Below are positions 546 to 40,232 of a stretch of DNA of 64,000 bases, piece by piece. The notes beneath the pieces were generated by a model, which was given only the letters and a program-made list of their open reading frames with translations, was not told where the DNA came from and made no database searches. Both the position numbers and the translations under genes were made by a program. The stretch spans positions 11,935 to 75,934 of the forward strand of contig JAQUPS010000001.1 of the NCBI GenBank assembly GCA_028716485.1, read 5' to 3'. Each line of letters opens with the position of its first letter. Within the stretch, counting starts at the first letter, position 1. The DNA is from Patescibacteria group bacterium. GTDB lineage: Bacteria; Patescibacteriota; Patescibacteriia; Patescibacteriales; WJLG01.

Positions 546-578
546 TTTCGTATTTCGTATTTCGTATTTCGTATTTCG
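546..578. repeat. Heptamer array TACGAAA x4 (minus sense) running directly into the start codon of the 1..545 gene
   Basis: Minus sense TACGAAATACGAAATACGAAATACGAAAATG. Confidence 0.9.
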
Positions 579-689
579 CTCACCTCAATTTAAGGCTCAC
601 AATAACAAAAAACGCGAAACGAATCATTGACTAATCCTCAACGTTGTTATTAAATGATATTATACCACAAAATACCAAGTAAATAAAAT

Positions 690-726
690 ATACGGAATAC
701 GAGATACGAAATACCCGATACGAATT
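690..726. repeat. Heptamer array TACGGAA TACGAGA TACGAAA TACCCGA TACGAATT abutting the relA start
   Basis: + sense, ends ...GATACGAATTATG; inverted relative to the 546-578 array across a divergent spacer. Confidence 0.85.
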
Positions 727-2595: not shown

Positions 2596-2702
2596 ATATT
2601 AGTATGAAGTATTTGATATTAAGTATTTGGTATATTACTTTAAATTTTAAAAAATTGCAACAGGGCGCGCATGACGCGTAACGGTTCAGAAAAATATTTA
2701 CG

Positions 2703-4076: not shown

Positions 4077-4108
4077 TTTTCGTATCTCGTATCTCGTATT
4101 TCGTATAC
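4077..4108. repeat. Heptamer array TACGAAA TACGAGA TACGAGA TACGAAAA 5 nt upstream of the hisS start
   Basis: Minus sense ...TATACGAAATACGAGATACGAGATACGAAAAGATATG. Confidence 0.85.
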
Positions 4109-4264
4109 TGCGAATAATACGATTGAAAATAAAAAATTATAATTTGAAAATTATTATGATGACTAACTTATAAAATGTTTTTCCGCATTATCTCGCTTTA
4201 AGCGGCATATTCGCACCCTCCCTTATCTAAAAATATACGAAATACCAAATACAATATACGAATC

Positions 4265-4849: not shown

Positions 4850-5004
4850 TCCCTCCTTGTTATTGGGGGAAGTCTTAATGATTAGTTAAACTTATATCCA
4901 ATATAACATTAAAAAATGTGACAGTCAACTATCGGAAGTCAGATGTCAGATATCAGAAGTCGGATATCTTATTTCCAACATCCGACATCAGATATCTGAA
5001 ATCC

Positions 5005-5024
5005 CTGCCTGCCGGCAGGCAGGC
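5005..5024. repeat. 20-bp perfect GC palindrome CCTGCCTGCCGGCAGGCAGG (copy 1 of 4)
   Basis: Exact string. Embedded in a hairpin-rich spacer (4915-5070) that also holds a terminator-like AAACCGGCC...GGCCGGTTTTTGTTTT. Confidence 0.9.
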
Positions 5025-5331
5025 GATATCCGACACAAAACCGGCCCCCCAAAAGAAGGCCGGTTTTTGTTTTCCCGAATGAAGTCGACTCGTCTAAATT
5101 AGTCTACATCATCCTGTGGATAATTATAGCAAACAAAATAATCATGGTCAATAGTTTTTAAATTAGTCATATAAATAAAAATGGCATTTTCGATTTCAAG
5201 CTGCGGAAATTTGAGATTGGAAATTAGAGATTTGGTTTATTTAAATACTAATCTCTAATTTCAAATCTCCAATCTCCCAACAAAAAAGAACCCTGGCGGG
5301 CTCTTTTTTTATCCTGAAATATTCAATAGCT

Positions 5332-6723: not shown

Positions 6724-7209
6724 TTAACGGCTTTTCAAATCATTTATAGCGCTAATGGCGATGGCCAGCGCATCAGCGGCATCGTCCGGCTTGGGTATTT
6801 CTTTCAAGTTCAAAAGCAGTTTGACCATTTTCTGCACTTGCGCCTTTTCCGCCCGGCCATAGCCGGAAATCGTCTGCTTGACCTGCAAAGGAGTGAGTTC
6901 GACAATCGGCACTTTATTTTTCCGGCAAGCCAGAAGAATGACGCCGCGAGCCTGGCCGACAATGATCGCTGTCTTGGCATTATTTTGAAAAAACAATTCT
7001 TCCACGGCGGCGAGCGCCGGCCGGTATTTTTTGATTATTTTTTCCAATTCATCGTTGAGCGTTTCCAGCCTGGATGCCATCGGCATTCCGGCCTTGGTCT
7101 TTATCGAACCGTAAGAGACGCAGGAAATTTTTCCGCCCGCGCCTTTTTCTATAACGCCAAAGCCGGTGTCAGCGATGCCGGGGTCGATGCCAAGTATCAT
7201 TTTAGACAT
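6724..7209 (-). CDS. ruvC: Crossover junction endodeoxyribonuclease RuvC
   Basis: ILGIDPGIADTGFGVIE, catalytic-acid pattern, C-terminal DDAADALAIAIS. Confidence 0.9.
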   Translation of the reverse strand: MSKMILGIDPGIADTGFGVIEKGAGGKISCVSYGSIKTKAGMPMASRLETLNDELEKIIKKYRPALAAVEELFFQNNAKTAIIVGQARGVILLACRKNKVPIVELTPLQVKQTISGYGRAEKAQVQKMVKLLLNLKEIPKPDDAADALAIAISAINDLKSR

Positions 7210-7378
7210 AAAATAAAATATCCAATAACCAATATCAAATATCCAAACAATATTTAAATATCAAAATATTGCTTTAAATATTGGTTATTTGATATTGGGT
7301 ATTTATCTGCTATTGCAATTTATAGATTATTATGTTATAGTATTTTTTAACAAAAATCCTCACCGAAGGAGCTAAAAA

Positions 7379-7651: not shown

Positions 7652-8368
7652 TTTCAAGTTGGAATAATGATCCGAGATATCTTCATTCTCATCCATGGCG
7701 GAAATTAATTTTTCGATTTTTTCCGCCGCTTCGCCGGAAACTTCGATCGTATCTTTGGCCACATATTCGATTTCCGCCGATTCGGTGGCAATACCCTTGC
7801 CTTCCAGATAGCTTTTAACTTTCTGCAAATTTGTCCCGGAAGTATAAATAGTCAGACCTTCCTCTTCCTTTTTAATATCATCGGCGCCGGCATCGATTAA
7901 TTCCAGCTGGCCTTCGTCGCTCGCTATCCCTTTCGCTTCCGCAACAGCGGCCGCCACGCGGATGACGCCCTTTAATTCGAAATTCCAGAGCACCGCGCCC
8001 ATCGCGCCGCCGTGCTCGGCCAGCAAATGGCGGATTTCCGCGGCCGTGCGATTTTTATTATCAGTCAAAATCTTGATGACGAATTGCGAATTGGCCGGGC
8101 CGACCGCCTCGTAAACCAATTCTTCGATGGTCGCGCCGGCCAGTTCGCCGGTGCCGCGCTTGATCGCCCTTTCAATATTATCTTTCGGCATATTCACCCC
8201 TCGGGCGCGGTCGACGGCGATGCGCAAAGCGAAATTTGTCGTCGGATCGCCGCCTTTTCTGGCCGCAATCGTTATCACATTGGCGATTTTAGTAAAAGCC
8301 GCGCCGCGTTTGGCGTCATTGGCTTCTTTTTGGCGATGAGTGGTCGCCCACTTGGAATGTCCGGACAT
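7649..8368 (-). CDS. yebC: YebC/PmpR-family DNA-binding regulatory protein
   Basis: MSGHSKWATTHRQKEANDAKRG...NMPKDNIERAIKRG. The ORF-track extension to 8407 translates the upstream heptamer array; the start is more likely at MSGHSKW. Confidence 0.85.
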   Translation of the reverse strand: MSGHSKWATTHRQKEANDAKRGAAFTKIANVITIAARKGGDPTTNFALRIAVDRARGVNMPKDNIERAIKRGTGELAGATIEELVYEAVGPANSQFVIKILTDNKNRTAAEIRHLLAEHGGAMGAVLWNFELKGVIRVAAAVAEAKGIASDEGQLELIDAGADDIKKEEEGLTIYTSGTNLQKVKSYLEGKGIATESAEIEYVAKDTIEVSGEAAEKIEKLISAMDENEDISDHYSNLK

Positions 8369-8490
8369 ATTGGAGATTAGAAATTTGAGATTTGAAAAAA
8401 ATGACAAAAATAAATTTCTGGTTAATAGCTTTTAACCAACTTTAACACGCCAAAAAGTAAAAATCAACCCCGCGATTAGTTGAATTTTTA

Positions 8491-12064: not shown

Positions 12065-13549
12065 CTAATTAATGGAATGTGGCAAGACAGGATATTTTCC
12101 TCCGAAACACCCGCCGCAAATTCCGCAATTATAGGTTTCTTTCACGCACCACATAAGATCGGCGAGAGAGAGATAATACAATTTGTCGGCGCCAATTTCC
12201 TTGCGAACCGCTTCCTTGTCCTTTTGAAAAGCGACTAATTCCCGGCAAGTCTGGAAATCCATCCCGTTGGGACAAATATTCCTGATCGGCGGAAATCCCA
12301 CGCAAAAAATCACTTTTCTGGCGCCGGCGGCGCGCAGCATTTCAATCACCGCCTTGGCCGTATTGCTGCGCACAATTGAATCGTCCACGACAATCACCGT
12401 CCGCCCGTTCACCGCTTCTTTTTTCAGATGCAATTTTTTACGGACCACATTCACTCTTTCTTCCGTGTTCACGCAAGTGAACGACCTGGATTGCCCGCCC
12501 AGCGGACCGTGCGCGCGCTGCAAAATTTCCTCGTAAATCTCTTCGTAGCGGAAGCCGGTTTGAGCCAAGTGGCGAGCCAATCCTTCGGCAAAATGCTTGC
12601 CCGAATCAAGGATGGGGACGACCAGCGGCTTATCATACAAATCCTGTTCGCTTAGACGGCTACCCATTGTCTGGCCGATCAAGCGCCGGAAATCTTCATG
12701 ATAAACGCCATTGATTTGGGAACGCGGATTGGAAAAATAAATCGCTTCGAAGATGCAGAGACACGGATCAGGCTCGGCGTAAATCACGCTTTTTGGTTTG
12801 AGCTTGCCTTTTTCGAAAATCACCATTTCACCCGGCAGCACATCCCGCCAATACTCGGCGTCAGGAAATTGGTCAAAGGCCACGGTTTCCGAACAGACCA
12901 AATGCCCTTTGTCGATTTTAGCCAGAGAAAGCGGCCGGTTGCCAAACCGGTCGCGGATGGCGAAAATCCTCTCGCTATTGATGATCAAGAGCGAATACGA
13001 ACAGGCGATTTTTTGCACCGCGGAAACAACAGCCTTCTCAATATCGTTCTTGCCGGACTGGAGAATCAGGTGAATAAAATTTTCCGTATCAGTAGTCGTA
13101 TTGTAAGCGGCTCCGGCGCGGATCAATCCGGCTTTTATTCTTTCGACATTAACCAATGTTCCGTTATGCGCTATTGCCAGGGGTCCGTATTTAGATTCGA
13201 CCAATGTCAATGGCTGAACATTGGCCACGAAATCCGGATCGCCTTGTGTCGCGTAACGGCAATGGCCGATCGCCGCGGTTCCGCGCAGTTCTGTCTGAAA
13301 ACGCGTTTGATCATACCAGCGGAACTGAACGCTGAACGGCCCGATACGCCGCCGATGATCCAATTTACCGGCATGGCAAGCGACGATTCCGCCGCCCCGC
13401 TCGCCTCTTCGTTCGATAGAATTAATCATCTGCGCGGTCATCCAGGAAGCATCAGACACGTTAATCGCCGCGGCCAAGCCGCAGCTTTCCGGCATCACTT
13501 CCCGCAGATCGTCATCCAAATCCCGGTTATTGAAACAAAGTATTCTCAT
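12065..13549 (-). CDS. purF: Amidophosphoribosyltransferase-like (class II glutamine amidotransferase + type I PRTase domain)
   Basis: Ntn-type Cys after a propeptide (ESCGLAAAI), GHCRYATQG, PRTase motif IVVDDSIVRSNTAKAVIEML, C-terminal Cys cluster. A real SD AGGGAGGGG lies upstream. Confidence 0.7.
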   Translation of the reverse strand: MRILCFNNRDLDDDLREVMPESCGLAAAINVSDASWMTAQMINSIERRGERGGGIVACHAGKLDHRRRIGPFSVQFRWYDQTRFQTELRGTAAIGHCRYATQGDPDFVANVQPLTLVESKYGPLAIAHNGTLVNVERIKAGLIRAGAAYNTTTDTENFIHLILQSGKNDIEKAVVSAVQKIACSYSLLIINSERIFAIRDRFGNRPLSLAKIDKGHLVCSETVAFDQFPDAEYWRDVLPGEMVIFEKGKLKPKSVIYAEPDPCLCIFEAIYFSNPRSQINGVYHEDFRRLIGQTMGSRLSEQDLYDKPLVVPILDSGKHFAEGLARHLAQTGFRYEEIYEEILQRAHGPLGGQSRSFTCVNTEERVNVVRKKLHLKKEAVNGRTVIVVDDSIVRSNTAKAVIEMLRAAGARKVIFCVGFPPIRNICPNGMDFQTCRELVAFQKDKEAVRKEIGADKLYYLSLADLMWCVKETYNCGICGGCFGGKYPVLPHSIN

Positions 13550-13593
13550 TTGCCCCTCCCTTGTTTTATATCATTAATGAAAAGAACTGGAAC

Positions 13594-13755
13594 CAGAACC
13601 CATCTCAAAAATAATCTCCGGCTCGTTTTCGGTCTTTTTTGGCTGCAAAATCCGAAAATTTCGTCAGTATAGCCCGCTATTCCTCCTCAATTTTCGGATT
13701 TTTCGCCTAAAAAATCCGCGAAAACGACCAGAAGCTATTTTTGAGATGGGTTCTG
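13594..13755. repeat. 162-bp nested inverted repeat (20-bp perfect outer arms CAGAACCCATCTCAAAAATA, 14-bp perfect inner arms AAAATCCGAAAATT); candidate MITE or structured RNA
   Basis: Outer arms at 13594-13613 and 13736-13755; inner arms at 13648-13661 and 13689-13702; 27-nt loop. Confidence 0.7.
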
Positions 13756-13893
13756 ATTATTTTATTCTTAAACTGAAAAAATATCAAGAGCAAAAAATCA
13801 CGTAACCCATATCACACAACACGTAACGGTACTAAAAATATTTTCTTGACAATTTTAATTTTTTTTCTTCCGGCGCAATGAGCAGATTTTTTT

Positions 13894-13984
13894 GTTACGT
13901 GTTACGTGTTACGTGTTACGTGTTACGTGTTACGTGTTACGTGTTACGTGTTACGTGTTACGTGTTACGTGTTACGTGTTACGT
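13894..13984. repeat. Tandem heptamer array, 13 x GTTACGT, abutting the stop codon of the 13984..14838 gene
   Basis: Exact 7-nt periodicity over 91 nt. The + ORFs MLRVTCYV... in the track are translation artefacts of this array. Confidence 0.95.
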
Positions 13985-16815: not shown

Positions 16816-16857
16816 TTCGTATATCGTATGTCGTATATCGTATTTCGTATATCTCGA
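16816..16857. repeat. Heptamer array TACGA[AT/CA]A x5 running into the rpsT start codon
   Basis: Gene sense: ATACGAAATACGATATACGACATACGATATACGAAAATTATG. Confidence 0.85.
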
Positions 16858-16931: not shown

Positions 16932-16951
16932 CCTGCCTGCCGGCAGGCAGG
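16932..16951. repeat. CCTGCCTGCCGGCAGGCAGG palindrome (copy 2 of 4), between rpsT and tRNA-Pro
   Basis: Exact string flanked by GGAATT/GGGAAC. Confidence 0.9.
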
Positions 16952-17077: not shown

Positions 17078-17197
17078 TATCGGATATCAGATGTCGGATT
17101 TCAGATGTCGGATAAACCAGTTAAATAATTTTATTTAAACAAAATATTTTGAACACTAAATCCGATATCTGACTTCCGAAATCTGAAATCCGGTATG

Positions 17198-17269: not shown

Positions 17270-17362
17270 CCTTCAAAGTGCAAAGTACGAGGTGCGAAGT
17301 GCGACTTGATTATATCAAAATATAATTCGCACTTCGAAATTTGCACTTCGAAATTTGGATTG

Positions 17363-17434: not shown

Positions 17435-17537
17435 GCACTTCAATTGAAAATTAAAAAAGAAAAAAGAAAAAATTTAGTAATTATACCGGCGCAAATTATT
17501 TTTTCTTTTTTATTTTTTAATTTTTATTTGATTGGTG

Positions 17538-19357: not shown

Positions 19358-20737
19358 TTAATTTTTATTTAAACTTTTATAGATCAGTCCGATTAAAATC
19401 CAAAAAAATAAAATGCCGAAAGGCAAGCTCCAGAGATAATGGTCAAACATCATCATTATAACCAAAGCAACCAGGATAGACAAGCTTAAAATATTATTTT
19501 TTTTCCATGATTGCAAGAATAAATATATTAGCAGGGCGGCGAAAAAAAACAAGCCGAAAATTCCGATTTCCGCCCAGACGAGCAAGAAAGCATTATGCAC
19601 GGGCTGTAAATAATACCAGGGCCGCTTCAAGTCGCTGCTTGACAGCGCTTTGGTGTAATTGCCGATGCCTGAGCCGAACAGCCAATTTTTTTCAATTATT
19701 TTTTGCGAATCAGTCAGATACATTTCCCTTTCTGAAAAAGATTTTTGCTCCAATCGGGCAGCGCCGACAGCGCGGGTGATAAATAAATTCTGGTAAGTGA
19801 AAAAAATCACTCCGGATAAAATTCCTGCTAAAATCATCACCAGCCCCAGCCGTTTCAGCGCCGGCCAATCCTTCTTAAAAATAATCATCGCCAAAAATAT
19901 GACAATGCCAACCGCCAAGGCCAAAAACGCGGAGCGGGAAAAAGTGAAAAGCAAGGCGGTAAATAAAAGAAAGAATAAAAGATAAAAAATAAAAAATTTT
20001 TTATTTTTTATTTTTTCTTTTTTAATTTCTTCTTTTTCCAAATAACCGCTAATGAAAATGTAAATAATGATTATTAAGCTCAATGCCAAAACTCCGCCAA
20101 GTATGTTCGGGTGATCAAGCGAACCGTAGGCGCGGAGCCAGCGCTCGGCAACGCCGTCTGAACCGGTAGTTTCAATCACTGACGCGCCCAAATCGCCCGG
20201 CAAATGCGCCGCCAATCCCAGCCATTTAAAAGCAAAAGTTCCTTGGTTTAAGAATTGCCAAATCGCCAAACCGCTCTGGATTAACAGGCCGGAAAAAAAA
20301 GCGATTGCCAATTTGATATTATCATATTCGGTCTTGACTATCAGCCAAAACAAGCCCAGCCCCAGCAAGAATAAAACATAGCGATAAGCCGCCAAAACCA
20401 AATCCGGCGCGAAAAATATGGAAATAAAAACAAACAAATCCAGCCCGGACAAAATAATTAATATTCCCCTCCTCGGGAGGGGTGGCCGCGCCGCGCGGAC
20501 GGGGTGGGTTATAATCGTAGTCTCGATCTGTCCCCCCTTCTTCTCTCGCCACGACAAAATAAAAAATAAAATCAACAACCCGATCAATAAAATATCCGTG
20601 CCGTATAAACTTATCGTCCCGTATTCCCAATCGCCGCGATTCAGCCAGCCCGGGCGTAAAATCAATTTCGTCTGCCAGGGCAAGAGGAAAACAAAAAGAT
20701 AAAGGCCATATTCTAATATTTTTTGAATTTTTTTCAT
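19358..20737 (-). CDS. O-antigen ligase/polymerase-family (Wzy_C-like) polytopic membrane protein
   Basis: About 10 TM helices with a periplasmic loop containing HNAFLLVWAEIG, a Wzy_C-like pattern. Confidence 0.6.
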   Translation of the reverse strand: MKKIQKILEYGLYLFVFLLPWQTKLILRPGWLNRGDWEYGTISLYGTDILLIGLLILFFILSWREKKGGQIETTIITHPVRAARPPLPRRGILIILSGLDLFVFISIFFAPDLVLAAYRYVLFLLGLGLFWLIVKTEYDNIKLAIAFFSGLLIQSGLAIWQFLNQGTFAFKWLGLAAHLPGDLGASVIETTGSDGVAERWLRAYGSLDHPNILGGVLALSLIIIIYIFISGYLEKEEIKKEKIKNKKFFIFYLLFFLLFTALLFTFSRSAFLALAVGIVIFLAMIIFKKDWPALKRLGLVMILAGILSGVIFFTYQNLFITRAVGAARLEQKSFSEREMYLTDSQKIIEKNWLFGSGIGNYTKALSSSDLKRPWYYLQPVHNAFLLVWAEIGIFGLFFFAALLIYLFLQSWKKNNILSLSILVALVIMMMFDHYLWSLPFGILFFWILIGLIYKSLNKN

Positions 20738-20782
20738 AAAAATCTCAATTTTACCTGCCGGCAGGCAGGCAGGAATTTTAAA
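20738..20782. repeat. Left copy of a ~44-bp element containing the GC palindrome CCTGCC(TGCC)GGCAGGCAGG
   Basis: aaaatctcaattttaCCTGCCGGCAGGCAGGCAGGaattttaaaac; inverted relative to the copy at 21958..22003. Confidence 0.8.
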
Positions 20783-21957: not shown

Positions 21958-22003
21958 TTTTAAAATTCCTGCCTGCCGGCAGGCAGGTAAAATTGAGATT
22001 TGG
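21958..22003. repeat. Right (inverted) copy of the ~44-bp CCTGCCTGCCGGCAGGCAGG-containing element
   Basis: ttttaaaattCCTGCCTGCCGGCAGGCAGGtaaaattgagatttgg is the reverse complement of the left copy at 20738..20782. Confidence 0.8.
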
Positions 22004-22007
22004 AATT

Positions 22008-23183
22008 TTATTCTTCCCCTTTCGGCCTTTCCAATTCCAGCGCTTCGATTTTTGATTCCTCGCCCGTGATGCGGATGACGTCTTTATCGACTTTCTTGAA
22101 TTCTTTATAGGCCGAGTTGTAATGATTAACCGTAACGCATAAAGAATTTCCGAGCTTCTGAAAATACTCGTCATAGGAATTCAGATGCCGGCCGAGCTTT
22201 TCGACATTGGCCTGAATTTCCTTGGCAGTTTCCTCTATCTTCATCGCTTTCAAGCCTTGCAAAACCGTTTGCAAATAAGCCAGAAAAGAAGTGGGCGAAA
22301 CGATAATCACTTTCTTGTCGCGGAAAGCGTATTCGATCAAATCGCGCGTATTGATTTTTACCGCCCCGACTTTATTGATGAGCAAATCATAATAGATTGC
22401 CTCGGAAGGAATGAACATAAAGGCGAAATCCATCGTGCCCATTTCCGGCTTGATATATTTGGAAGTCTCGTCAATGCGATTTTTTAAATCCTGCCGGAAA
22501 ATCTTTTCCAAATTTTCCCGCTCAACCGCATCGGTGGCGTCCAGAATCCGCTGATAATTTTCCAAAGAAAATTTGGCATCGATCGGAATGATTTTGTCTT
22601 TCACGAAAACCGCCGCATCAACGATTAAATCCGCGTTGCCCGCCTTGTCCTTGCCCAGTTTGTATTGCATCTCGTAAGCGCCGGGCGGCAGGACATTTTT
22701 CAAAGTTTCTTCCAGAAAATATTCGCCCAAGACGCCGCGCTGTTTGGGATTTTTCAGAATATCCTGCAAGTTCTGCAATTGGCCGGAAAAATTGATCACC
22801 TGCTTGTTGGTCTCATCCAGTTTGGCCAATTTTTCCGAAACCTCGGTGATGACTTTCTGCGACTGCGCGTGCATTTCCATCATCATCTTGTTCGCCTGGC
22901 CGGTAACGCCTTGCATCAGCCCGGCGGTTTTGCCGAACTGGTCTTGCGTGGTTTTGTAAGCTTCAGAAAGTTTGGCATCCAGCGCCTTGCGCATTTCCTC
23001 GTTCTGCGTTGCCAAATTTCCCAAACGCTCCATCATTACGGCGATTTTCTCGTCGCCTGAACCGCTTTTTTTTCTCAGCAACAGATAAATTATAATTACC
23101 ACTCCTGCCAGCAGTAAAATCGGAAATAAATTATCCATATAAATCAAATAAAAAATTAATGTTTTATTACCTGATTTTATCAT
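22008..23183 (-). CDS. rmuC: DNA recombination protein RmuC
   Basis: N-terminal TM, coiled coil, RmuC core RGVLGEYFLEETL...IPIDAKFSLENY. The true start may be the internal Met near 23138. Confidence 0.8.
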   Translation of the reverse strand: MIKSGNKTLIFYLIYMDNLFPILLLAGVVIIIYLLLRKKSGSGDEKIAVMMERLGNLATQNEEMRKALDAKLSEAYKTTQDQFGKTAGLMQGVTGQANKMMMEMHAQSQKVITEVSEKLAKLDETNKQVINFSGQLQNLQDILKNPKQRGVLGEYFLEETLKNVLPPGAYEMQYKLGKDKAGNADLIVDAAVFVKDKIIPIDAKFSLENYQRILDATDAVERENLEKIFRQDLKNRIDETSKYIKPEMGTMDFAFMFIPSEAIYYDLLINKVGAVKINTRDLIEYAFRDKKVIIVSPTSFLAYLQTVLQGLKAMKIEETAKEIQANVEKLGRHLNSYDEYFQKLGNSLCVTVNHYNSAYKEFKKVDKDVIRITGEESKIEALELERPKGEE

Positions 23184-23806: not shown

Positions 23807-23812
23807 AGTTTC

Positions 23813-23883
23813 AATGCTAAATGATGAATGCTAAATTATTTTTTAATTTCATCTCAGCATTCATCATTTAGCATTTAGCATTT
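23813..23883. repeat. Palindromic element built from AATGCTA-type heptamers (copy 1), abutting the secA stop
   Basis: aatgctaaatgatgaatgctaaatt...tcagcattcatcatttagcatttagcatt; near-identical element at 27696..27767. Confidence 0.8.
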
Positions 23884-26658
23884 TTACTTGCCACAACAAT
23901 TTTTATACTTAACCGGCGTGCCGTCCGGTTTTTTAGCTCCGCAGGGACAAGGATCATTGCGGCCTACTTTCTCGCCTTCGGCATTGAGAGTTTTTTGTTT
24001 GACATTGTCAAAAGCCGCGCGTCCTTCGGCCGAGGCTTCGGCGGTTTTGGCCGGCGCGGAAAAAGTACGGGCGCGCTGGAGCAGATTGGGCGCGGAAAAT
24101 CCCATCGCCGTCAGGCCTTGCGCCGAGCCGAATTTATAAATTCCGTAGACCACTTCTTTCTGAATTAAATTATTCAATTCGGAAAACATCCGGAAAGCTT
24201 CTTTTTTATATTCCACCAGCGGATCGCGCTGGCCATAGCCTCTTAAGCCTATGCCGCGACGCATAAAATCCATCGAATCCAGATGATCAACCCAAAGCGA
24301 ATCGATCGAGCGCAACAGGATATTTTTCTCAATGTCGCGCCAATCCAAACCGGCGGCGACATAATCTTCGGTCATTTTCCCATAGCGCTCACCGGCCAAT
24401 CCTATTAAATGTTCGATAATTTTAGTGCGCACCAGCGCCTTTTCTAATTTTTTAGTTTCGTCGGCAATGCCCGACAAATCGGCCATCAGCTCGCTTTTAA
24501 CCGGAAAAATTGTGTTCACCGTTTCATAGATTTCCTTAATATTCCAGGACTTAATATCATCGGCCGCGGTATGGAAAAAAACGACTTGCTCCAACTCTCC
24601 TTCCACCATTTCCAAAATAAGTTCCGAGAGTTTTTCCGGCTCAGTTTCCGCCTTGGCTAAAATTTCGTCGCGGCGGCGATAAATCGTTTCGCGATGCTTA
24701 TTGATGACATCGTCATATTCGACCAGATGTTTGCGCAGATCAAAATTATTGGCTTCCACTTTTTTCTGCGCCGTTTCAATCGAGCCGGTGATCATCCGGT
24801 TCTCGATCGGCATATCCTCGGGCAAGCGCAAGGTCGTCATCAGTTTTTTCATCCGGTCGCCGCCGAAAATGCGCATCAGATCGTCCTCGCAGGAAAGATA
24901 AAAACGCGACATGCCTGGGTCGCCCTGGCGTCCGGCGCGGCCGCGGAGCTGATTGTCGATGCGACGCGCTTCGTGGCGCTCGGTGCCGATGACATACAAA
25001 CCGCCCAAAGCTTTCACTTTTTCGCTTTCTTCCTTCCAAGCGGCAACTTCCTCCGGCGTCATATCCTTATCCATCTGTCCGCCTAAAATAATATCGACGC
25101 CGCGGCCGGCCATATTGGTCGCCACGGTAATCGCGCCGAGTTTGCCGGCTTGGGAAATAATGCGCGCTTCCCGCTCGTGATTCTTGGCATTCAAAAATTC
25201 CGGATTCAATCCTTCGCGAACCATCAGCTCGGAAAGCAATTCGTTTTTCTGGATGGAAATCGTACCGACCAGAACCGGCTGGCCCTTCTCGTGTTTATCT
25301 TTAATATCTTTGATCACCGCCTGAAATTTCGCCAGTTCGGTCTTGTAAACCAGGTCATTCAAATCGTTCCTCACCATCGGCTTATTGGTCGGCATCACAG
25401 CCACTTCCAATTTATAAATCTTGGCGAATTCTTCCGCTTCGGTCACGGCCGTTCCGGTCATACCGGCGAGTTTTTTATACATCCTAAAATAATTCTGAAA
25501 AGTGATAGTCGCCAAAGTCTGGGATTCGCGCTGGATCGGCTGGCCTTCTTTGGCCTCGATCGCCTGATGCAAACCTTCACTGTAGCGGCGGCCCGGCATC
25601 AAGCGGCCGGTAAATTCATCAACGATCAAAACTTCGCCATTCTTGACGACATAATCCTTGCCTTCTTTGAAAAGCACTTCGGCCTTCAGTGCCTGCTCGA
25701 TGTGATGGACTTCGCCGATCCCCTTTTCCACATAAATATTGCCAATGCCCAGATAGCCTTCCATTTTCTCAATGCCGCTTTCGCTTAAAGTGACGGTGCG
25801 CATTTTTTCATCGACATTATAATCTTCATTTTCTTTTAAGCGACGCACGAGGTCGGCGAATTTATAATATTTATCGGTTGATTCCTCGGCCGGCGCGGAA
25901 ATGATCAGCGGCGTGCGGGCTTCATCGATCAAGATGGAATCGATTTCATCAACGATGGCGAAATTCAAACCGCGCTGGACTTTATCTTTTTGCGACGGAA
26001 CCATATTGTCGCGCAGATAATCAAAACCAAATTCGTTATTGGTGCCGTAAACAATGTCACAGGCATAAGCTTCCTGGCGTTCGGCTTTGCGGAAATGCGC
26101 CAGACGCTCATCGTATTTTTCTTCCTCGTTGATAAAATCAGCGTCATAAATGAATGAGGCTTGATTGACGATGACGCCCACCGAGAGGCCGAGAAAATTA
26201 AAAATCGGAGCCATCCAGCCGGCGCCGACGCGGGACAAATAATCATTGACGGTAACCAGCTGGACGCCTTTGCCGGTTAAAGCATTAAGATATAAAGGCA
26301 AGGTGGCAACCAAAGTTTTTCCTTCACCGGTTTTCATTTCCGCAATCTGGCCGCGATGCAAGACGATGCCGCCCATCAGCTGGACGTCGAAATGCCGCTG
26401 ATTGATTTTACGTTTGGCGGCTTCGCGCATCACCGCGAAAGCGTCGGGAAGAATTTCATCCAATTTTATTTTTATCTCATCGTTTATTTCCGGAACTTCG
26501 CCAAGACATTCTTTCAATATTAAAGTCTGCCCGGCGAGTTCTTCGTCGGACATTTTAGAATATTTTTCTTCGAGCTGATTTATTTTTTCCACTTCCGGCA
26601 ATAATCCCTCAACGACTTTTTCATTTGGATCGCCGAAAATCTTGGTCAAAAAAGACAT
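23884..26658 (-). CDS. secA: Preprotein translocase ATPase SecA (with C-terminal zinc-binding tail)
   Basis: 924 aa. DEAD-like motor motifs (MKTGEGKTLVATLP, VDEIDSILIDEARTPLIIS), C-terminal CPCGAKKPDGTPVKYKNCCGK. Confidence 0.95.
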   Translation of the reverse strand: MSFLTKIFGDPNEKVVEGLLPEVEKINQLEEKYSKMSDEELAGQTLILKECLGEVPEINDEIKIKLDEILPDAFAVMREAAKRKINQRHFDVQLMGGIVLHRGQIAEMKTGEGKTLVATLPLYLNALTGKGVQLVTVNDYLSRVGAGWMAPIFNFLGLSVGVIVNQASFIYDADFINEEEKYDERLAHFRKAERQEAYACDIVYGTNNEFGFDYLRDNMVPSQKDKVQRGLNFAIVDEIDSILIDEARTPLIISAPAEESTDKYYKFADLVRRLKENEDYNVDEKMRTVTLSESGIEKMEGYLGIGNIYVEKGIGEVHHIEQALKAEVLFKEGKDYVVKNGEVLIVDEFTGRLMPGRRYSEGLHQAIEAKEGQPIQRESQTLATITFQNYFRMYKKLAGMTGTAVTEAEEFAKIYKLEVAVMPTNKPMVRNDLNDLVYKTELAKFQAVIKDIKDKHEKGQPVLVGTISIQKNELLSELMVREGLNPEFLNAKNHEREARIISQAGKLGAITVATNMAGRGVDIILGGQMDKDMTPEEVAAWKEESEKVKALGGLYVIGTERHEARRIDNQLRGRAGRQGDPGMSRFYLSCEDDLMRIFGGDRMKKLMTTLRLPEDMPIENRMITGSIETAQKKVEANNFDLRKHLVEYDDVINKHRETIYRRRDEILAKAETEPEKLSELILEMVEGELEQVVFFHTAADDIKSWNIKEIYETVNTIFPVKSELMADLSGIADETKKLEKALVRTKIIEHLIGLAGERYGKMTEDYVAAGLDWRDIEKNILLRSIDSLWVDHLDSMDFMRRGIGLRGYGQRDPLVEYKKEAFRMFSELNNLIQKEVVYGIYKFGSAQGLTAMGFSAPNLLQRARTFSAPAKTAEASAEGRAAFDNVKQKTLNAEGEKVGRNDPCPCGAKKPDGTPVKYKNCCGK

Positions 26659-26795
26659 ACAGAAAATTTTTAAATTTTAAATTTTTAAATAATTTTTAAG
26701 CTCTAATTTTTAATTTTTAAAAAAACCGCCTAAAATGTTGCTTAAAAATTAAAAATTCTGATTTCTTTAAAAATTATAAAAATTAAAAATTTATA

Positions 26796-27107
26796 TTAGA
26801 CCTCTCTCCCTTTCTCCTTAAACTTGATTATTTCCCTTTCCATATGATCTTTCACCTTGTCGATCGCCTTATACAAATCCTTTTCGGTTTTTTCGACGCG
26901 CAGTAATTTGCCGTTCAAATCCAGATTTATTTCCGCCCGATAAATTTCCCCCGAATGCTGGCCGCCGACCGCCAAGCCGACTTCAAAATGGCAATTGATC
27001 ACCGGCATGCCGCCGGTGAATTTTTCCAGCATATCGACTTTTTTCTGGATGTAATCGCGGATCGCGTCGGTTAATTCAATTTTGGTGGCTTTAATTTGAA
27101 TTTGCAT
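26796..27107 (-). CDS. hpf: Ribosome hibernation promoting factor (HPF/RaiA family, short form)
   Basis: MQIQIKATKIELTDAIRDYIQKKVDMLEKF...HFEVGL. Confidence 0.85.
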   Translation of the reverse strand: MQIQIKATKIELTDAIRDYIQKKVDMLEKFTGGMPVINCHFEVGLAVGGQHSGEIYRAEINLDLNGKLLRVEKTEKDLYKAIDKVKDHMEREIIKFKEKGREV

Positions 27108-27227: not shown

Positions 27228-27692
27228 TCAAATCTTTTCAAATCTTATCGTCTTGCCGGCTTCATCAAGATAAAATCGCAGGCGGGAAAATTTTCCGGAC
27301 AAGGCGTCCTTAAGCCAATATTGGTCATCGTCCCACATTTCCGCGCGCGGAAAATTTTCTCTCTTGAACCATCTTAATTCGCCTTCGCCGCCATCTCGCA
27401 ATTCCCCTTCCCATTCTTTAACTGAAAAAACATGGACTGCCCAATTTTTCTGTTCGTGATCCGGCGGCCAGATATATTCGATATAGCCGATCTTTTCCAA
27501 ATTTTTCACTTACACTCCCGCCTCTTCCCGAATTTCCCTGATGGCTGCGGCCAAGATATCTTCGCCAGGTTCGGCTTTGCCGCCGACGCCATTCCATTTG
27601 CCAACGCCCAAACCGCGCGATTTTTTCTGCAACAGAATTTCGCCGTTATCGTTAATAAAATAATTCAAGCTGGCGACCGTAAAAATTTTCAT
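27228..27692 (-). pseudogene. NUDIX hydrolase (MutT-like) interrupted by a single in-frame TAA at 27510-27512
   Basis: ORFs 27510..27692 (Nudix box GGKAEPGEDILAAAIREIREEAGV) and 27228..27509 are in the same frame, separated only by TAA; the C-terminal part continues the NUDIX fold. Confidence 0.6.
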
Positions 27693-27695
27693 AAA

Positions 27696-27767
27696 AATGC
27701 TAAATGATGAGTGCTAAATGCTAAATTAAATAAAAAATTCAGCATTCATCATTTAGCATTTAGCATT
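27696..27767. repeat. Palindromic AATGCTA-heptamer element (copy 2) between the NUDIX start and the cca stop
   Basis: aatgctaaatgatgagtgctaaatgctaaatt...tcagcattcatcatttagcatttagcatt. Confidence 0.8.
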
Positions 27768-29256
27768 AGACTTTGAATTCCCGCTTCATCTGCCGGTCTT
27801 CTTCTTCGCGTTTTTCTTCTACCACTTCTTTGGATTTTTTTCTCAACTCGGCCGCATCCATTTTATTGAGTTCAATGGCGCGCTCGCTTAAATATTTTGG
27901 GTTATTGTTTTCCGGATTCTCGATCACTTCGGCTAAAAGCACATCTAAAATCTCCCCGATTTTCGGCGAGGGCGGAATTTTCAAGTCGTTCATCAAATCC
28001 GTGCCGTTGATTTTTAACATCTTTACCGAAACCGGATCATTCTGCACCCGCTCGAACATATATTGCAGATGGCGCAATTTATAAGGCTCGGCTTTGGGCG
28101 TGCCCGAACCTAAGCGGTCGGCAATGCGCAAGTCAATCAAATCCTTTAAATTTTCCTTGCCGACTTTCTTGATTAAGCGGCGCACCGAAGCGGCGGTTAC
28201 TTCGCCGGCATTATAATAGAACATATGATGGCGAACCAGATTGACGATGCGCTCCGAATCGGCGGCGGAAAATTTCAAACTGCGGCAAAGGCGGTCAGCC
28301 AGGCGGGCGCCGACATATTCGTGATTATAAAAAGTGGCGATGCCATTGATTATTTTTTTCGTTTTCGGCTTGCCGATGTCGTGGATCAGCGCGGCAAAAC
28401 GCACCTGCCATTCCTTTGCCGGACAAGTTTTTAGCGACAAAACGCCATGCTCAAAAACCGTATAGATATGATGCCGACTTTGCTCGATGCCCACGCCCTG
28501 TTCTAATTCGGGAATGATATATTGCAATAATTTAGTATTATGCAAAGCCATAATGCCGTCATACGGGCGGTCGGATTGCAGAATCTTAATCAATTCCACG
28601 GCTACCCGTTCGCGGGCGATGAATTTCAAAGACCCGGCCATCTTAACGATGGCACGCTCGGTTTTCGGCTCAATGGAAAAATTAAGCTGGGCGGCAAAAC
28701 GGATCGCCCGCATCATCCGCAACGCGTCTTCCTTAAAACGGTCATACGGTTCACCCACGGCGCGAACAATTTTTTTCTTCAAATCTTTTACTCCGCCGAA
28801 CAAATCAATGATCTGATAACTTTCCTGCACAATCACAAATCTTGCCAGATCTTCTTTTAAAGGCAATTTGCTTTTTTCATTGCGCATTGCCAAAGCGTTA
28901 ATGGTAAAATCACGGCGCGCCAAATCCGCGTCAATGTCTTTTTCAAACTTGACCTCATCCGGCCGGCGGCGGTCGGAATAGCCTTGCTCGGAACGATAAG
29001 TGGTAACCTCAATTGCATCCAGCACTTCCTCTTTTTCATTTTTTACCGGCAAGATAACCGTACCGAAAATATTTTCATAATGCGCTTCGGGGAAAATTTT
29101 CAGCATTTGTTCCGGCAAGGCATTCGTCGTTAAATCCCAATCGTTCGGTGTCTTATCCATTAAAAAATCCCGCACGCAGCCGCCTACGATCCACGCCTCA
29201 AAATTATTTTTTTCCAGCGTTTTAATTATTTCCTCAAGATATCTTGGAATAACCAT
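27766..29256 (-). CDS. cca: CCA-adding tRNA nucleotidyltransferase with C-terminal HD domain
   Basis: GGCVRDFLMDKTPNDWDLTT, RRDFTINALA, HD motif HDIGKPKT. Confidence 0.9.
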   Translation of the reverse strand: MVIPRYLEEIIKTLEKNNFEAWIVGGCVRDFLMDKTPNDWDLTTNALPEQMLKIFPEAHYENIFGTVILPVKNEKEEVLDAIEVTTYRSEQGYSDRRRPDEVKFEKDIDADLARRDFTINALAMRNEKSKLPLKEDLARFVIVQESYQIIDLFGGVKDLKKKIVRAVGEPYDRFKEDALRMMRAIRFAAQLNFSIEPKTERAIVKMAGSLKFIARERVAVELIKILQSDRPYDGIMALHNTKLLQYIIPELEQGVGIEQSRHHIYTVFEHGVLSLKTCPAKEWQVRFAALIHDIGKPKTKKIINGIATFYNHEYVGARLADRLCRSLKFSAADSERIVNLVRHHMFYYNAGEVTAASVRRLIKKVGKENLKDLIDLRIADRLGSGTPKAEPYKLRHLQYMFERVQNDPVSVKMLKINGTDLMNDLKIPPSPKIGEILDVLLAEVIENPENNNPKYLSERAIELNKMDAAELRKKSKEVVEEKREEEDRQMKREFKV

Positions 29257-29364
29257 AGTTAATAAAATCTCAATTTAAAATTTTAAAATAAATCAAAATA
29301 TCTAAATTATAAATTCTTAAATTTCTGATTTGAAATTTTTTTTAAAATTTAAAATTGTGATTTG

Positions 29365-30309: not shown

Positions 30310-30367
30310 TAAACTTTTTAAATCTAAATTTTAAATTTTAAAATAAATTAAAAATCTAAAAATCAAA

Positions 30368-30724: not shown

Positions 30725-30766
30725 AGCCTCCTATTTTTATTTTTGATTTATTTTAAAATTTAAAAT

Positions 30767-32212
30767 TTAGATTTGGGATTTTATCAAGGCTTCTCCCACC
30801 CTAAACACGTCTCCCGCGCCGATGAGGATGATGATTTCATCGCGCTGAATATTTTCCCGCAAATATTTTTCGCATTCAGCCAAATCTTTGACGTGTATAA
30901 ATAATTTGTCCACCTTCGCTAAAGCTTCGGCGGACGCGGTCGGCAAAGCAGAGTTGGATTTGTTTGACTCATATTCGCGCATCTTTTCTATCAAATCTAA
31001 GCTGGAAACGCCGCCCTGCGTCTCGCGAGCCGAGCCATAAATATCCAAAACGATCACTTTATCAGCGTCGGAAAAACTTTGGGCGAATTCATTTAATAAA
31101 GCCTTGGTGCGCGTAAAAGTATGCGGATGGAAAACGGCCGTAATTTTATTTTTAGGATAAGCGGCGCGCGCGCCGGCCAGCGTCGCCCGAATTTCGGTCG
31201 GATGATGGCCGTAATCATCGATAACCGTCGCACCATTGAATTTGCCCATTATTTTAAAGCGCCGGTCGGTGCCAGAAAATTCTTCCAGATAAGTCCGGAT
31301 GTCTTTCAGGTCCGCGCCCAATTCGACGCTGGCGGCAATCACGGCCAGAGCATTGTAAATATTGTGTCGGCCGGAAAGCTGGATGGAAAAATCTCCGATC
31401 CCCTCGCCGTCCATTTTGACCTTAAAGAATTGTTTCAGACCCTGCTGTTTTATTTCGTAAGCAAAATAATCTACATCTTCCCTATTCAAAGCATAGCTGA
31501 TTATTTTTCCGCGGCAATTGACGTTGGCGATCTTGGCGATTTCCTCGTCATCGAAATTAGTTATCAGAAAGCCTTTCTTGGGAATTTTCTCGATGAATTT
31601 TACAAAGGCGTTGACATAGCTTTCCAGCGTCGGATAAAAATCATGATGGTCGTGGTCGATGTTATTCAATAAAACCGCTTTGGGGCTGTAATATTTTAAT
31701 TTATTCTGATATTCGTCGGCCTCAATGACCATATAATCAGAGCTGCCAAAAACGCCGGCGCCTTCGAATTGCTCCACGCGCGCGCCCACCAAAACGTTCG
31801 GTTTTAGGCCGGCTTTCCATAAAACATAGCCCAGCCAGGCGGTGGTCGTCGTCTTGCCGTGCGAGCCGCAAACGGCAATGCCATACATCTTATTAAAAAT
31901 TTCACCCAAAACTTCGGCATAAGTTAATGTCTTGATTTTTCCGGCCAGCGCCTTGGCAACCTCGCTATTTGTCTGCGCATTATATGCCGAAGAGTAAATA
32001 ATCAAATCAGCGTCAACCGGCGTATTGGCAGCGTCAAATCCCTGATTAATTTTAATTCCATATTTGGCCAAAATCTGATCAGTCATAAAAACTTCAGCCA
32101 CATCCGAACCGGAAACTTCATAACCCTTACTAACCAAAAACTGCGCCAACATTGTCATGCCCACGCCTTTGATGCCGATCATATAAACTTTTTTGAGTTT
32201 GGATAAATCCAC
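30767..32212 (-). CDS. murC: UDP-N-acetylmuramate--L-alanine ligase (probable GTG start)
   Basis: Mur ligase P-loop GSHGKTTTTAWLGYVL; catalytic and C-terminal domains present. Confidence 0.9.
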   Translation of the reverse strand: MDLSKLKKVYMIGIKGVGMTMLAQFLVSKGYEVSGSDVAEVFMTDQILAKYGIKINQGFDAANTPVDADLIIYSSAYNAQTNSEVAKALAGKIKTLTYAEVLGEIFNKMYGIAVCGSHGKTTTTAWLGYVLWKAGLKPNVLVGARVEQFEGAGVFGSSDYMVIEADEYQNKLKYYSPKAVLLNNIDHDHHDFYPTLESYVNAFVKFIEKIPKKGFLITNFDDEEIAKIANVNCRGKIISYALNREDVDYFAYEIKQQGLKQFFKVKMDGEGIGDFSIQLSGRHNIYNALAVIAASVELGADLKDIRTYLEEFSGTDRRFKIMGKFNGATVIDDYGHHPTEIRATLAGARAAYPKNKITAVFHPHTFTRTKALLNEFAQSFSDADKVIVLDIYGSARETQGGVSSLDLIEKMREYESNKSNSALPTASAEALAKVDKLFIHVKDLAECEKYLRENIQRDEIIILIGAGDVFRVGEALIKSQI

Positions 32213-35036: not shown

Positions 35037-35234
35037 ACAAAATTATAATGCCTATTTAAAAAATACGAAATGCGAAATTCTAAATTCGAAACAAATCCAA
35101 ATTTTCAAAATCCGAAATACTAAACATTTTGAATTTTGGTCATTCGAATTTTGGGCTTGTTTAGGATTTAGTGTTTAGAATTTCGGATTTACATTCATTG
35201 TACTCGCAAAGTTTTCATCATCGGTGTCACAAAC

Positions 35235-36272: not shown

Positions 36273-36435
36273 ATTTTTTTCACGTAACACACATCACGCA
36301 ACACGCAACATGATGAGCGAATGATTTAATCAGCCAATCTGCTTTTTTTAAATAACCGTCTCACTGGTAAAATAGTAAAGAAAATTATTGACAAAAATAT
36401 TTTTCTTCCTATTTTTAAGTGCGGAAAAAACAAAT

Positions 36436-36547
36436 TGTTATGTGTTATGTGTTATGTGTTATGTGTTATGTGTTATGTGTTATGTGTTATGTGTTATGTG
36501 TTATGTGTTATGTGTTATGTGTTATGTGTTATGTGTTATGTGTTATG
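36436..36547. repeat. Tandem heptamer array, 16 x TGTTATG, between the 36553..36975 gene stop and the mraY upstream region
   Basis: Exact 7-nt periodicity over 112 nt. A related array GTTGCGT GTTGCGT GATGTGT GTTACGT abuts the mraY start (36273-36310). Confidence 0.95.
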
Positions 36548-39317: not shown

Positions 39318-39392
39318 AAATATCGAAATTAGATATTAGAAATTGGAAAATTGGTTATTTTTAGTTACAACCGCTAAGAAGAGATCTAATTT

Positions 39393-40163: not shown

Positions 40164-40232
40164 TGTTAATTAAAAATTTAAAGTTAAAAGTTAAAAATAT
40201 TTTTAATTTTTCACTTTTAACTTTAAATTGTG

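Follow-up and report, generated by a model that had tools for sequence, protein, structure and literature searches.

Why do tandem repeats of a 7-nt unit run straight into the start codons of so many genes in a Patescibacteria genome? The question comes from a 64-kb stretch of contig JAQUPS010000001.1 (the window; 64,000 nt in all), which belongs to a metagenome-assembled genome (MAG) of the Patescibacteria (candidate phyla radiation, CPR). An earlier description of the window from its letters alone (the sequence-only reading) had noted such arrays upstream of genes without a Shine-Dalgarno (SD) sequence and proposed that they mark a distinct, gene-specific class of translational leaders. We confirmed that the heptamer-array pattern in the intergenic DNA is real. 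The arrays do not behave like gene-specific translation signals. Instead, the explanation that we favor, and to which we give about an even chance of being correct, is that they are lineage-specific, fast-evolving heptanucleotide microsatellite hairpins, mostly arranged as inverted pairs that form AT-rich stems of 25–60 bp.

Our analysis covered this one window and about 250 kb of loci from relatives. Contigs and loci from relatives, from other Patescibacteria and from other comparison sets are referred to by L-numbers (L001–L129). Syntenic contigs were recruited by scanning metagenomes with HisS (93, 84–87, 76, 73, 60 and lower percent identity), and three further syntenic loci came from look-ups with MurG. 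The MurG of the window is identical to the NCBI protein MDD5527389.1, and its SecA reaches at most 55–61% identity to any GTDB species representative, with Falkowbacteria, Magasanikbacteria and other Patescibacteria MAGs at the top. Exact look-ups of window proteins returned the same organism only, at 100% identity and with no strain variation. In the curated gene map, intergenic DNA makes up 14% of the window and almost every gene lies on the minus strand.

We assessed periodicity with Tandem Repeats Finder (TRF), lag identity, a strict and a relaxed array caller, and block shuffles that keep composition. The sequence-only reading had suggested an autocorrelation at lag 7, and in the non-coding DNA of the window this gave peaks at multiples of 7 (identities of 0.323, 0.308 and 0.300 at lags 7, 14 and 21, and a further peak at 28, against a background of ~0.27–0.29); coding DNA has period 3 only. 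TRF output contained 48 rows of period 7 and 13 of period 14 among 115. The strict caller returned nine arrays at k = 7 and none at k = 4–6, 8–13 or 15, while the relaxed caller returned 43 segments at k = 7; at lags other than multiples of 7 it gave 1–12, and on block shuffles 1.1. The same register stands out among single duplications: with the window and 12 relatives pooled, perfect 7-nt tandem duplications number 73 with two copies and 10 with at least three, where 12.8 and 0 are expected. This is a 5.7-fold excess, and k = 4 and k = 5 match expectation. As 1,640 of the 1,948 array bases are intergenic in a window with so little intergenic DNA, the arrays are mainly non-coding, and they occupy ~18% of the intergenic bases. 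They are head-to-tail 7-nt copies beyond chance, as in long simple sequence repeats (SSRs) of the heptanucleotide class.

The proposal that the period is always 7 is supported, with many different unit sequences: 148 arrays hold 75 different canonical units, which have no common core and tend to include an A-tract. Many arrays fit period 14 better than period 7 in TRF, indicating hierarchical duplication. The arrays listed in the sequence-only reading were recovered by TRF at 546–578, 690–724, 4080–4106 (hisS), 16817–16853 (rpsT), 2603–2633 (rpsU, period 14), 7217–7246 (ruvC), 8369–8397 (yebC), 35061–35091 (ftsW), 36281–36310 (mraY) and 47618–47646 (GT4), and so were the heptamer units that it had placed in the tRNA spacers. 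Two long perfect arrays had escaped it, TGTTACG x13 at 13893–13984 and TGTTATG x16 at 36436–36547, with copy numbers as assembled. We rejected an assembly artefact, because arrays of like kind recur in independent JGI, NCBI and Logan assemblies and in independent runs. Logan contigs from two runs end inside both perfect arrays.

The arrays had also been described as inverted pairs able to fold into hairpins, and this was borne out. An inverted partner (at least 17 of 21 positions matched within 220 nt) accompanies 31 of the 43 arrays, compared with 2 of 43 when the flanks are shuffled, and a further three segments are palindromes in themselves; inverted pairs make up about 80% of the arrays overall. 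RNA folding of ten spacers gives stems of 25–45 bp with z-scores of −3.5 to −6.8 against shuffles. The arms are mirror images in register, with a complementarity of 0.8–0.93 at shift 0 and 0.55–0.78 at shifts of ±7, and the complementarity between arms usually exceeds the lag-7 identity within an arm. At the Rfam gathering threshold only rRNA and tRNA pass, and the heptamer arrays match no Rfam family; permissive scans of two spacers returned generic long-hairpin microRNA (miRNA) models, all below threshold. Intrinsic terminators were rejected as an identity for the hairpins: the heptamer stems are long, AT-rich and missed by a terminator scan. Canonical GC-rich terminators are present separately within array-bearing spacers.

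A typical hairpin spans the whole distance from the stop codon of the upstream gene to the start codon of the downstream gene. On the minus strand, the entire 69-nt spacer between a GT2 stop codon and the DUF2304 ATG is one hairpin (40162–40231, z −4.6), the entire spacer between a subtilase stop codon and an epimerase ATG is an A/T heptamer palindrome with 93% complementarity (43370–43449), and another A/T heptamer hairpin fills the spacer from the murB stop codon to the start of the CCA-adding enzyme gene (29265–29363). A hairpin of CGTAACA x4 and TGTTATG units likewise lies between the mreB stop codon and a GT4 start (47610–47694, minus strand, z −4.1). Other hairpins span from tRNA end to tRNA end: three inter-tRNA spacers on the minus strand (17078–17196, 17270–17361 and 17435–17536; z −6.8, −6.8 and −4.7) each hold a single heptamer-arm hairpin, which fills the spacer right up to the ends of the tRNAs. 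In the hisS spacer (4079–4262, minus strand), the left arm begins at the lepB stop codon (4234–4262) and the right arm, of TACGAGA/TACGAAA units, reaches the hisS ATG (4079–4107); their complementarity is 0.86 in register and 0.62 at ±7. A promoter-like site lies in the loop of this pair (4165–4136). The mraY spacer also has its promoter in the loop, and the core between the divergent relA and pilin genes is similar. The hisS loop holds, in addition, a six-codon mini-ORF (about 4170–4210, minus strand) with a strong SD, AAGGGAGGGTGCGAAT ATG CCG CTT AAA GCG AGA TAA. Its start resembles that of hisS (ATGCC...); a remnant is one possibility, a small upstream ORF another.

Each of the two long perfect arrays is a single, enlarged arm of such a pair. 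On the minus strand, the perfect (CGTAACA)x13 arm (13893–13984) extends from the stop codon of an MBL-fold gene and faces a degenerate arm of 4–5 units (13789–13827), the pair as a whole occupying 13789–13984. The pair around the mraY promoter region (36280–36547, minus strand) joins a perfect (CATAACA)x16 arm, which starts 5 nt past the upstream stop codon (36436–36547), to a TGTTGCG-type arm at the mraY start (36280–36315). Both partner arms are short and degenerate, and perfect arms beside degenerate partners suggest recent expansion.

The placement of arrays directly against SD-less start codons also held when we tabulated the upstream windows: arrays lie within −42 to −1 of 13 of the 52 coding sequences (CDS), and none of these 13 has an SD, compared with 9 of the other 39. 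The abutment is genuine, because Pfam alignments that start at profile positions 1–2 confirm the start codons of RuvC, SecA, MreB and DUF2304. A perfect (TTTCGTA)x4.7 array (546–578, minus strand; TRF match 100%), which is TACGAAA x4 in gene sense, runs into the ATG (545) of a gene that Pfam places as T4SS-pilin-like, with a degenerate partner arm upstream at about 595–625. On the plus strand, a TACGGAA/TACGAGA/TACGAAA/TACCCGA array (degenerate TACGRRA, 690–724) ends 2–5 nt before the relA ATG (727) and is 84% complementary to 547–578, across a promoter core (579–689) that is conserved in relatives. The proximal arm of an AATATCC/AATAACC hairpin (7206–7304) runs into the ruvC ATG (7209). Minus-strand leader arrays comprise the rpsU array (CCAAATACTTAATAT x2, period 14, 2596–2637), which abuts the ATG; an AATCTCM array (8366–8398) directly upstream of the true yebC start (about 8368), homology beginning at residue 9–14 of the long ORF; TACGAWA x5 between a −10-like box and the rpsT ATG (16817–16853); a TTTAAAA/TTTAGAT array ending 3 nt before the murB ATG (30313–30355); and an AATTTCY/AATATCT array ending 1 nt before the ATG of a GT4 glycosyltransferase gene (39319–39355).

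Initiation in the window as a whole offers a setting for these contacts. A recognizable SD precedes only 9 of the 52 CDS, and translation initiation in this organism seems, from the sequence, to be largely SD-independent. A TATAAT-like box stands 3–11 nt upstream of the ATG in 8 of the 52 (for example at the starts 14838, 15568, 11905, 35036, 39806 and 52659), which suggests that these eight have leaderless mRNAs. We rejected the arrays themselves as promoters of leaderless mRNAs: a TAWAAT box 3–11 nt before the ATG occurs in none of the array-led genes and in eight others.

The idea of a distinct class of translational leaders found no support in a survey of where else the arrays sit, since the same arrays occur at sites without a leader. 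Where relA and rpsU converge, a hairpin of AGATATT/GGAAATT units follows the rpsU terminator between the two 3′ ends (2220–2298, z −3.5), with neither promoter nor start codon close by. A GATATC/GATGTCG-type hairpin (4929–5005, z −5.2) is flush with the lepB −35 box (TTGACT at 4928) on one side and has the terminator of a conserved small RNA on the other, and a GGAGATT/GGAAATT hairpin lies between the terminator of the sigma-factor gene and the promoter of that small RNA (5205–5277, z −6.7). All three tRNA spacers carry arrays. A pair of GAAATTC/TACGAAA-like arrays (35056–35190, minus strand) sits upstream of the ftsW −10 box, and this TATAAT box is only 6 nt before the ATG, placing the array in promoter DNA and not in a leader. 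SDs, for their part, are missing from most genes of the window anyway. They also coexist with arrays: past a TTTAAAA-type array at the murC stop codon (30739–30783, minus strand), the next gene has an AGGAGG SD before its ATG, and in six relatives the rpsU array is followed by an SD.

Arrays even occur within reading frames. An in-frame AATTAAA/AATGAAA array (32814–32853, minus strand) encodes KIKNEKLK in the interdomain loop of MurG; its sequence, AATTAAAAATTAAAAATGAAAAATTAAA, is identical in the window and in L126, and L128 has AAAGAAC units there. Translating (AAATTAC)n and (GGGTTAC)n gives exactly the homologous MurG peptides QITNYKLQ and RVTGYGLR. That a reading frame should hold a 7-nt period speaks for a mutational origin rather than for selection or for a signal read by the ribosome. 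A second coding case is a near-perfect A/T heptamer palindrome of 70 nt (19962–20031, minus strand) in a Wzy/O-antigen-ligase-like ORF (19358–20737, minus strand). It translates in frame to EKEEIKKEKIKNKKFFIFYLLFFLLF, a Lys-rich loop followed by a Phe-rich helix, one for each arm of the palindrome. MurG contains, besides its array, a GC-rich in-frame hairpin at codons of about 31–44 (AATCCGCC...GGCGGATT, 33247–33286, minus strand), which encodes SAFAKAAADKGG and is present, absent or expanded (PAFAKASPFAKAS...) among homologs that are 70–79% identical. This presence or absence of a palindromic insertion is reminiscent of Rickettsia palindromic elements (RPEs).

Relatives were expected to keep the period and vary the unit, and orthologous spacers do differ in their units. 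Array density is 3–11 per 10 kb in relatives down to about 46–60% HisS identity. Some other Patescibacteria also have arrays (L001, from Falkowbacteria, L014 and L073); the Patescibacteria loci L003, L006 and L048 have no period-7 arrays, and the non-Patescibacteria loci compared have about 0. Scans of viral contigs for (TACGAAA)3 and (GTTACGT)n found five isolated arrays on unrelated contigs and no pervasive period-7 signal.

The spacer between lepB and hisS illustrates how quickly the arrays turn over. Across the window and relatives whose HisS is 73–87% identical, it is found in four states: TACGAAA units form a pair in the window and GAAATTT units do so in L082, L086 has a TTAAAAA-type element, and in L083/84, L085 and L088 it is just 5–14 nt long with no array. 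Relatives with other units or none have an SD-less hisS too, which is further evidence against a distinct leader class. As hisS is SD-less in all relatives compared, the SD was already missing when the arrays came in. The same variation led us to reject TACGAAA as the operator of a regulon. Different units, different elements or nothing at all likewise occupy the relA–pilin, sigma–lepB, murG–murC, murC–murB and murB–CCA spacers of relatives. Conserved within array-bearing spacers are the divergent relA/pilin promoter core, the lepB promoter and the small RNA of ~90 nt, which acts as an internal control and argues that the arrays beside it are not under sequence constraint.

The small RNA gene (5030–5121, minus strand, ~90 nt) lies between the sigma-factor gene and lepB. 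Its promoter (5151–5123) has the form TTGACC-17-TATAAT with an extended −10, and it ends in a GC-rich intrinsic terminator. The RNA has a 5′ hairpin (AUUAUCCACAGGAUGAUG...CAUCAUU) and the motif GGGAAAAC. It can be aligned in seven relatives, with compensatory changes in 10 of 32 pairs, and has no Rfam match.

Some other spacers remain occupied in relatives. The mraY spacer has a pair in the window, L126 and L128, with the related units CATAACA, CGTTACG and CATAGAA, and L090 has a TACGAAA-type pair at its pilin leader in the same place as the window. In the hisS–rpsU spacer, an orthologous hairpin is present in six relatives (L082, L083, L085, L086, L089 and L090), with TTCGTA/TACGAA units in three of them and TTAGTA/TACTAA units in the other three; C-G has become A-U at three periodic positions, in both arms. 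In the alignment 93.8% of cells are paired, compared with 85.6% in shuffles and 30–58% in slid controls, and the covariation score of 0.269 against 0.115 in shuffles was reached by none of 500 shuffles. This covariation, from six sequences in two subclades, is suggestive but not conclusive evidence that the arms co-evolve. It is expected alike from slippage with copying between arms and from selection for pairing.

The rpsU array of the window (2596–2637) is the surviving right arm of this hairpin. A conserved GGAGGTG SD (GGATCGGAGGTG) comes after the array in the six relatives, and in the window and its closest relative, L102 (~85% nucleotide identity in hisS), the SD has been lost along with the left arm of the hairpin. 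The hisS–rpsU spacer of L102 is otherwise unrelated to that of the window. Arrays and SDs can therefore coexist, and the SD-less rpsU of the window is derived.

The units had been called gene-specific. There are indeed many of them, but they form families that recur at several loci, with 2–6 copies per family in 64 kb. The TACGAAA family is found in the pilin, relA, hisS, rpsT and ftsW regions, the TGTTACG family at three loci and the GATATC type at two, and the AATATCC/AATAACC units of the ruvC hairpin reappear at other loci in L127, L128 and L093. The AAATGCT family has two hairpins on the minus strand, at 23808–23890 and 27690–27770 (z −6.7 for the second), which have an identical 29-mer in common (100% over 29 nt). 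The clearest dispersed element is a TTAAAAA-type hairpin of ~145 nt. One copy ends 2 nt before the secA ATG (26653–26804, minus strand) and another 6 nt before the mreB ATG (48697–48847, minus strand); further copies precede hisS in L086 and the gene for the CCA-adding enzyme in L127. These four copies in three genomes can be aligned from end to end at 77% column identity, and their arms are conserved but their loop varies. Other pairs of one family (TACGAAA, TGTTACG) have only the arrays in common and unlike central regions, which argues against one large composite element.

A second dispersed repeat, CCTGCCTGCCGGCAGGCAGG, is a perfect, GC-rich palindrome with a period of 4 in its arms. It has five matches at four loci of the window, against 0.01 expected (5005–5022, 16933–16950, 20751–20772 and 21969–21986), and one in L122 (371–388), with variants in L085 and L102. 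The Logan contig L129 begins exactly at this palindrome.

These observations led us to the microsatellite-hairpin explanation. Units would be gained, lost and homogenized by replication slippage with a strongly preferred 7-nt register, the arms would be kept complementary by intramolecular template switching (quasipalindrome correction) or by inverted duplication, and elements would now and then be copied to new sites. Fold-back would keep stop and start codons, promoters and start codons, or tRNA ends physically adjacent, so that the elements are tolerated. The contact with start codons would follow from genes that can do without an SD and from ancestral spacers only 5–15 nt long, in which an inserted element takes up the entire gap. 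As RNA, the elements would be intercistronic or 5′-untranslated-region (5′-UTR) stem-loops like those of repetitive extragenic palindromic (REP) sequences, and they may secondarily affect mRNA stability, processing or translational coupling. What we see directly on the side of this explanation is the specificity of the period, the indifference to context, the turnover next to conserved neighbors, the mirrored arms, the expansion of single arms and the dispersed copies.

Several points weigh against it. Pairing is kept through sequence change, and relatives still have arrays in the mraY, rpsU and pilin spacers; both would likewise be expected if the hairpin were selected as RNA or DNA. Between L083 and L084, two near-identical contigs, there are 5 mismatches and 4 gap openings with 5 gap bases in all, and no 7-nt step. 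We infer, and do not observe, the cause of the 7-nt register, the template switching and the dispersal. Finally, short-read contigs break within the x13 and x16 arrays, and the copy numbers there rest on the assembly.

Heptamer repeats as such are not new, and the ingredients of the heptamer-hairpin pattern are already known. Those of the cyanobacteria are of the short tandemly repeated repetitive (STRR) type. Nostoc PCC7120 carries TTTTGAA/TTCAAAA repeats (bioRxiv 10.1101/2022.06.06.494920), and TTCAAAA-type units also occur in the Patescibacteria relatives. Heptanucleotides are the commonest class of long SSR in prokaryotes, and polymerase slippage has been proposed as their origin (Mrazek 2007, as cited in PMC4679880). 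Like those SSRs, the arrays described here are tandem 7-nt units, mainly intergenic and often near starts or promoters, with several units per genome, a sporadic phylogeny and a period preference that is put down to polymerase slippage. Unlike them, they are short (4–5 units) and degenerate, form in-register inverted pairs and fill stop-to-start spacers, and they occur in Patescibacteria.

One of the closest precedents for the position at start codons is the TAACTGA direct repeat found upstream of starts in marine Beggiatoaceae, some Cyanobacteria and Bacteroidetes (MacGregor 2015, PMC4679880). There, as here, 2–6 heptamer copies lie a few nucleotides from the start, over the place of the ribosome-binding site, in SD-less genes with no functional pattern downstream. 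The TAACTGA repeats have a single unit and one inverted case in 170, whereas our arrays have many units and inverted pairs are the rule. The window has no TAACTGA tandems (0 matches to TAACTGATAACTGA at up to 2 mismatches). Contiguous 7-bp units in either orientation also serve as the operators and parS sites of omega/ParB on plasmid pSM19035, which needs at least four contiguous heptads (PMC9499535, PMC2441792). Our arrays likewise have direct and inverted units at promoters, typically at least four. The plasmid system differs in having one consensus heptad and one ribbon-helix-helix protein, in contrast to dozens of unrelated chromosomal units; a search of the window for WATCACW arrays found none, with a single chance-level match.

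The claim that the element is undescribed stands for the Patescibacteria: our literature search on heptamers, tandem repeats and palindromes in Patescibacteria/CPR found no description of heptamer-arm hairpins, and one on STRRs likewise turned up nothing specific. It does not stand more widely, as start-adjacent heptamers are known from Beggiatoaceae, Nostoc and the Haemophilus influenzae hmw genes. A 2026 survey reported that inverted repeats are denser in CPR phyla than in any others and does not mention heptamers (PMC13155455), nor are they mentioned in a tree-of-life survey of short tandem repeats. What look new are three things: many units combined with paired arms and with occupancy from stop to start, the in-frame arrays that form peptides, and the arm-wide covariation.

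Among the other explanations, the one that best withstands these data is that the hairpins are selected RNA stem-loops, which we consider possible, if on the doubtful side. They could be RNase III substrates, REP-like blocks to 3′ exonucleases, or translation gates that pair the pre-AUG region with the distal arm and open only if the upstream gene is translated or transcription starts inside the loop; the 7-nt repeats would be raw material for quick tuning of stem length. There is a precedent in H. influenzae, where the transcribed (ATCTTTC)n leader SSR of hmw1A and hmw2A forms one arm of a long 5′-UTR hairpin that is processed by RNase III; the hairpin is linked to expression and also drives rapid change in repeat number (PMC12721329). 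That is one contingency locus of a pathogen with a non-repeat, G-rich partner arm, as opposed to the many loci with repeats in both arms that we describe, although in both cases 7-nt repeats form an arm of a long hairpin upstream of genes. The stems fold far better than shuffles and have in-register arms, which speaks for such a role, as do the compensatory changes that keep the orthologous hisS–rpsU hairpin paired in six relatives and the stop-to-start span, by which the stem base juxtaposes the two codons. With a promoter in the loop, as in the hisS and mraY spacers, only read-through transcripts would form the stem. Yet close relatives have orthologous spacers that are hairpin-free and function with 5–14 nt. 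Some hairpins are at places where a co-transcript should have no use for them, past a terminator between converging genes or ahead of −35 boxes, and like arrays are found within coding sequence. The relA and pilin arms, moreover, are on divergent transcripts and can never pair as RNA, and gene conversion between arms predicts the six-sequence, two-subclade covariation equally well.

A bolder variant, which we regard as unlikely, is that the hairpins are an adaptive, sequence-independent device of an SD-poor lineage. Pairing of the bases just past a stop codon with those just ahead of the next start codon might hand terminating ribosomes on to the next gene, or cuts by a double-stranded-RNA nuclease might give near-leaderless 5′ ends, and 7-nt slippage would then retune stem length and hence expression. 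If hairpins act in RNA processing or translational coupling, they would amount to a lineage-wide regulatory layer. Equally novel, if true, would be a 7-nt register rooted in some particular feature of how this clade replicates or repairs its DNA.

Mobility offers another way to disperse palindromes. REP sequences and bacterial interspersed mosaic elements (BIMEs) in enterobacteria, and RPEs in Rickettsia, are dispersed imperfect palindromes at intercistronic and 3′ positions that are variably present between relatives. RPEs insert in frame into protein genes, and a REP-associated tyrosine transposase (RAYT) is known for REPs. The heptamer hairpins, too, are imperfect palindromes with a stable stem-loop, as in REP, BIME, RPE and miniature inverted-repeat transposable elements (MITEs); they form dispersed families that vary among relatives, and the in-frame MurG case is like an RPE. 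REPs and RPEs, by contrast, have one family consensus and arms that are not tandem repeats, whereas the arms here are tandem-repeat arrays, and the window encodes no RAYT.

We considered non-autonomous mobile palindromes of the MITE, REP/BIME or RPE kind, moved by a transposase encoded elsewhere (such as RAYT, or an IS200/IS605-type Y1 enzyme acting on single-stranded DNA hairpins), with the period inherited from a founder element and slippage altering copies only after insertion. Dispersed families whose arms are conserved and loops variable, with copies at non-orthologous sites of one genome or of several, would fit this, and so would the sharp presence/absence polymorphism with insert boundaries at stop and start codons, the dispersed CCTGCCTGCCGGCAGGCAGG palindrome and the RPE-like cases in MurG and the Wzy-like ORF. 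Against it, filled and empty lepB–hisS sites show no target-site duplication or fixed termini, and the roughly 52 CDS of the window include no transposase. The families are small, with copies only 75–92% identical. The mraY arrays drift in place, for which in-situ evolution is the better fit, and different units occupy one codon-level position in MurG. On balance we find such mobility quite improbable. Least probable of all, and by our estimate very unlikely, is that the arrays are binding sites for heptad-reading proteins (omega/ParB-like on DNA, or a TAACTGA-type regulator on RNA) that make up a regulon or nucleoid-organizing code: the usual 4–5 contiguous direct or inverted heptads at promoters and starts, the A-tracts and the TACGAAA arrays in sense before pilin, relA, hisS and rpsT are what it would predict, but the dozens of units have no common core, the two known heptads are absent as arrays, the TACGAAA set is not conserved, and arrays also lie in coding sequence and 3′ spacers.

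The arrays have several consequences. Patescibacteria genomes are tiny and densely packed, and it is unexpected that in this clade repeat hairpins take up about a fifth of the scarce intergenic DNA. The arrays flag nucleotides that are unconstrained, including the 20–40 nt before many starts, and this bears on how SD-less initiation works. They break short-read assemblies and make hypervariable sites, and in MurG even peptide segments that are new and have a 7-residue periodicity. They are also a natural experiment on why 7 nt is the favored slippage register in prokaryotes, and they may partly explain why CPR phyla top surveys of inverted repeats. The window encodes an RmuC-family protein (22008–23183, minus strand), the product of a common gene. 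RmuC is reported to limit inversions at short inverted repeats, and is possibly relevant to a genome so rich in them.

Two further regions of the window deserve mention. The purF leader (13567–13780, minus strand; purF at 12065–13549) forms a long imperfect hairpin with 83-nt arms of 71% complementarity, followed by a strong SD. It matches no riboswitch or other Rfam family at threshold, with generic miRNA-precursor models as its only hits, and it may be an uncharacterized leader structure. Near the rRNA genes, an AAAAAAG/TTTTTTC inverted pair lies upstream of the 23S region (63228–63310, partner match 20/21). The 23S rRNA itself (58484–62747) is 4,264 nt long compared with 2,925 nt in the bacterial model, an excess of about 1.3 kb that implies insertions. 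An ORF of 180 amino acids lies inside it (59758–60297), and a LAGLIDADG endonuclease ORF (57376–57870) is found in the unusually long 23S–5S spacer of ~1.65 kb.

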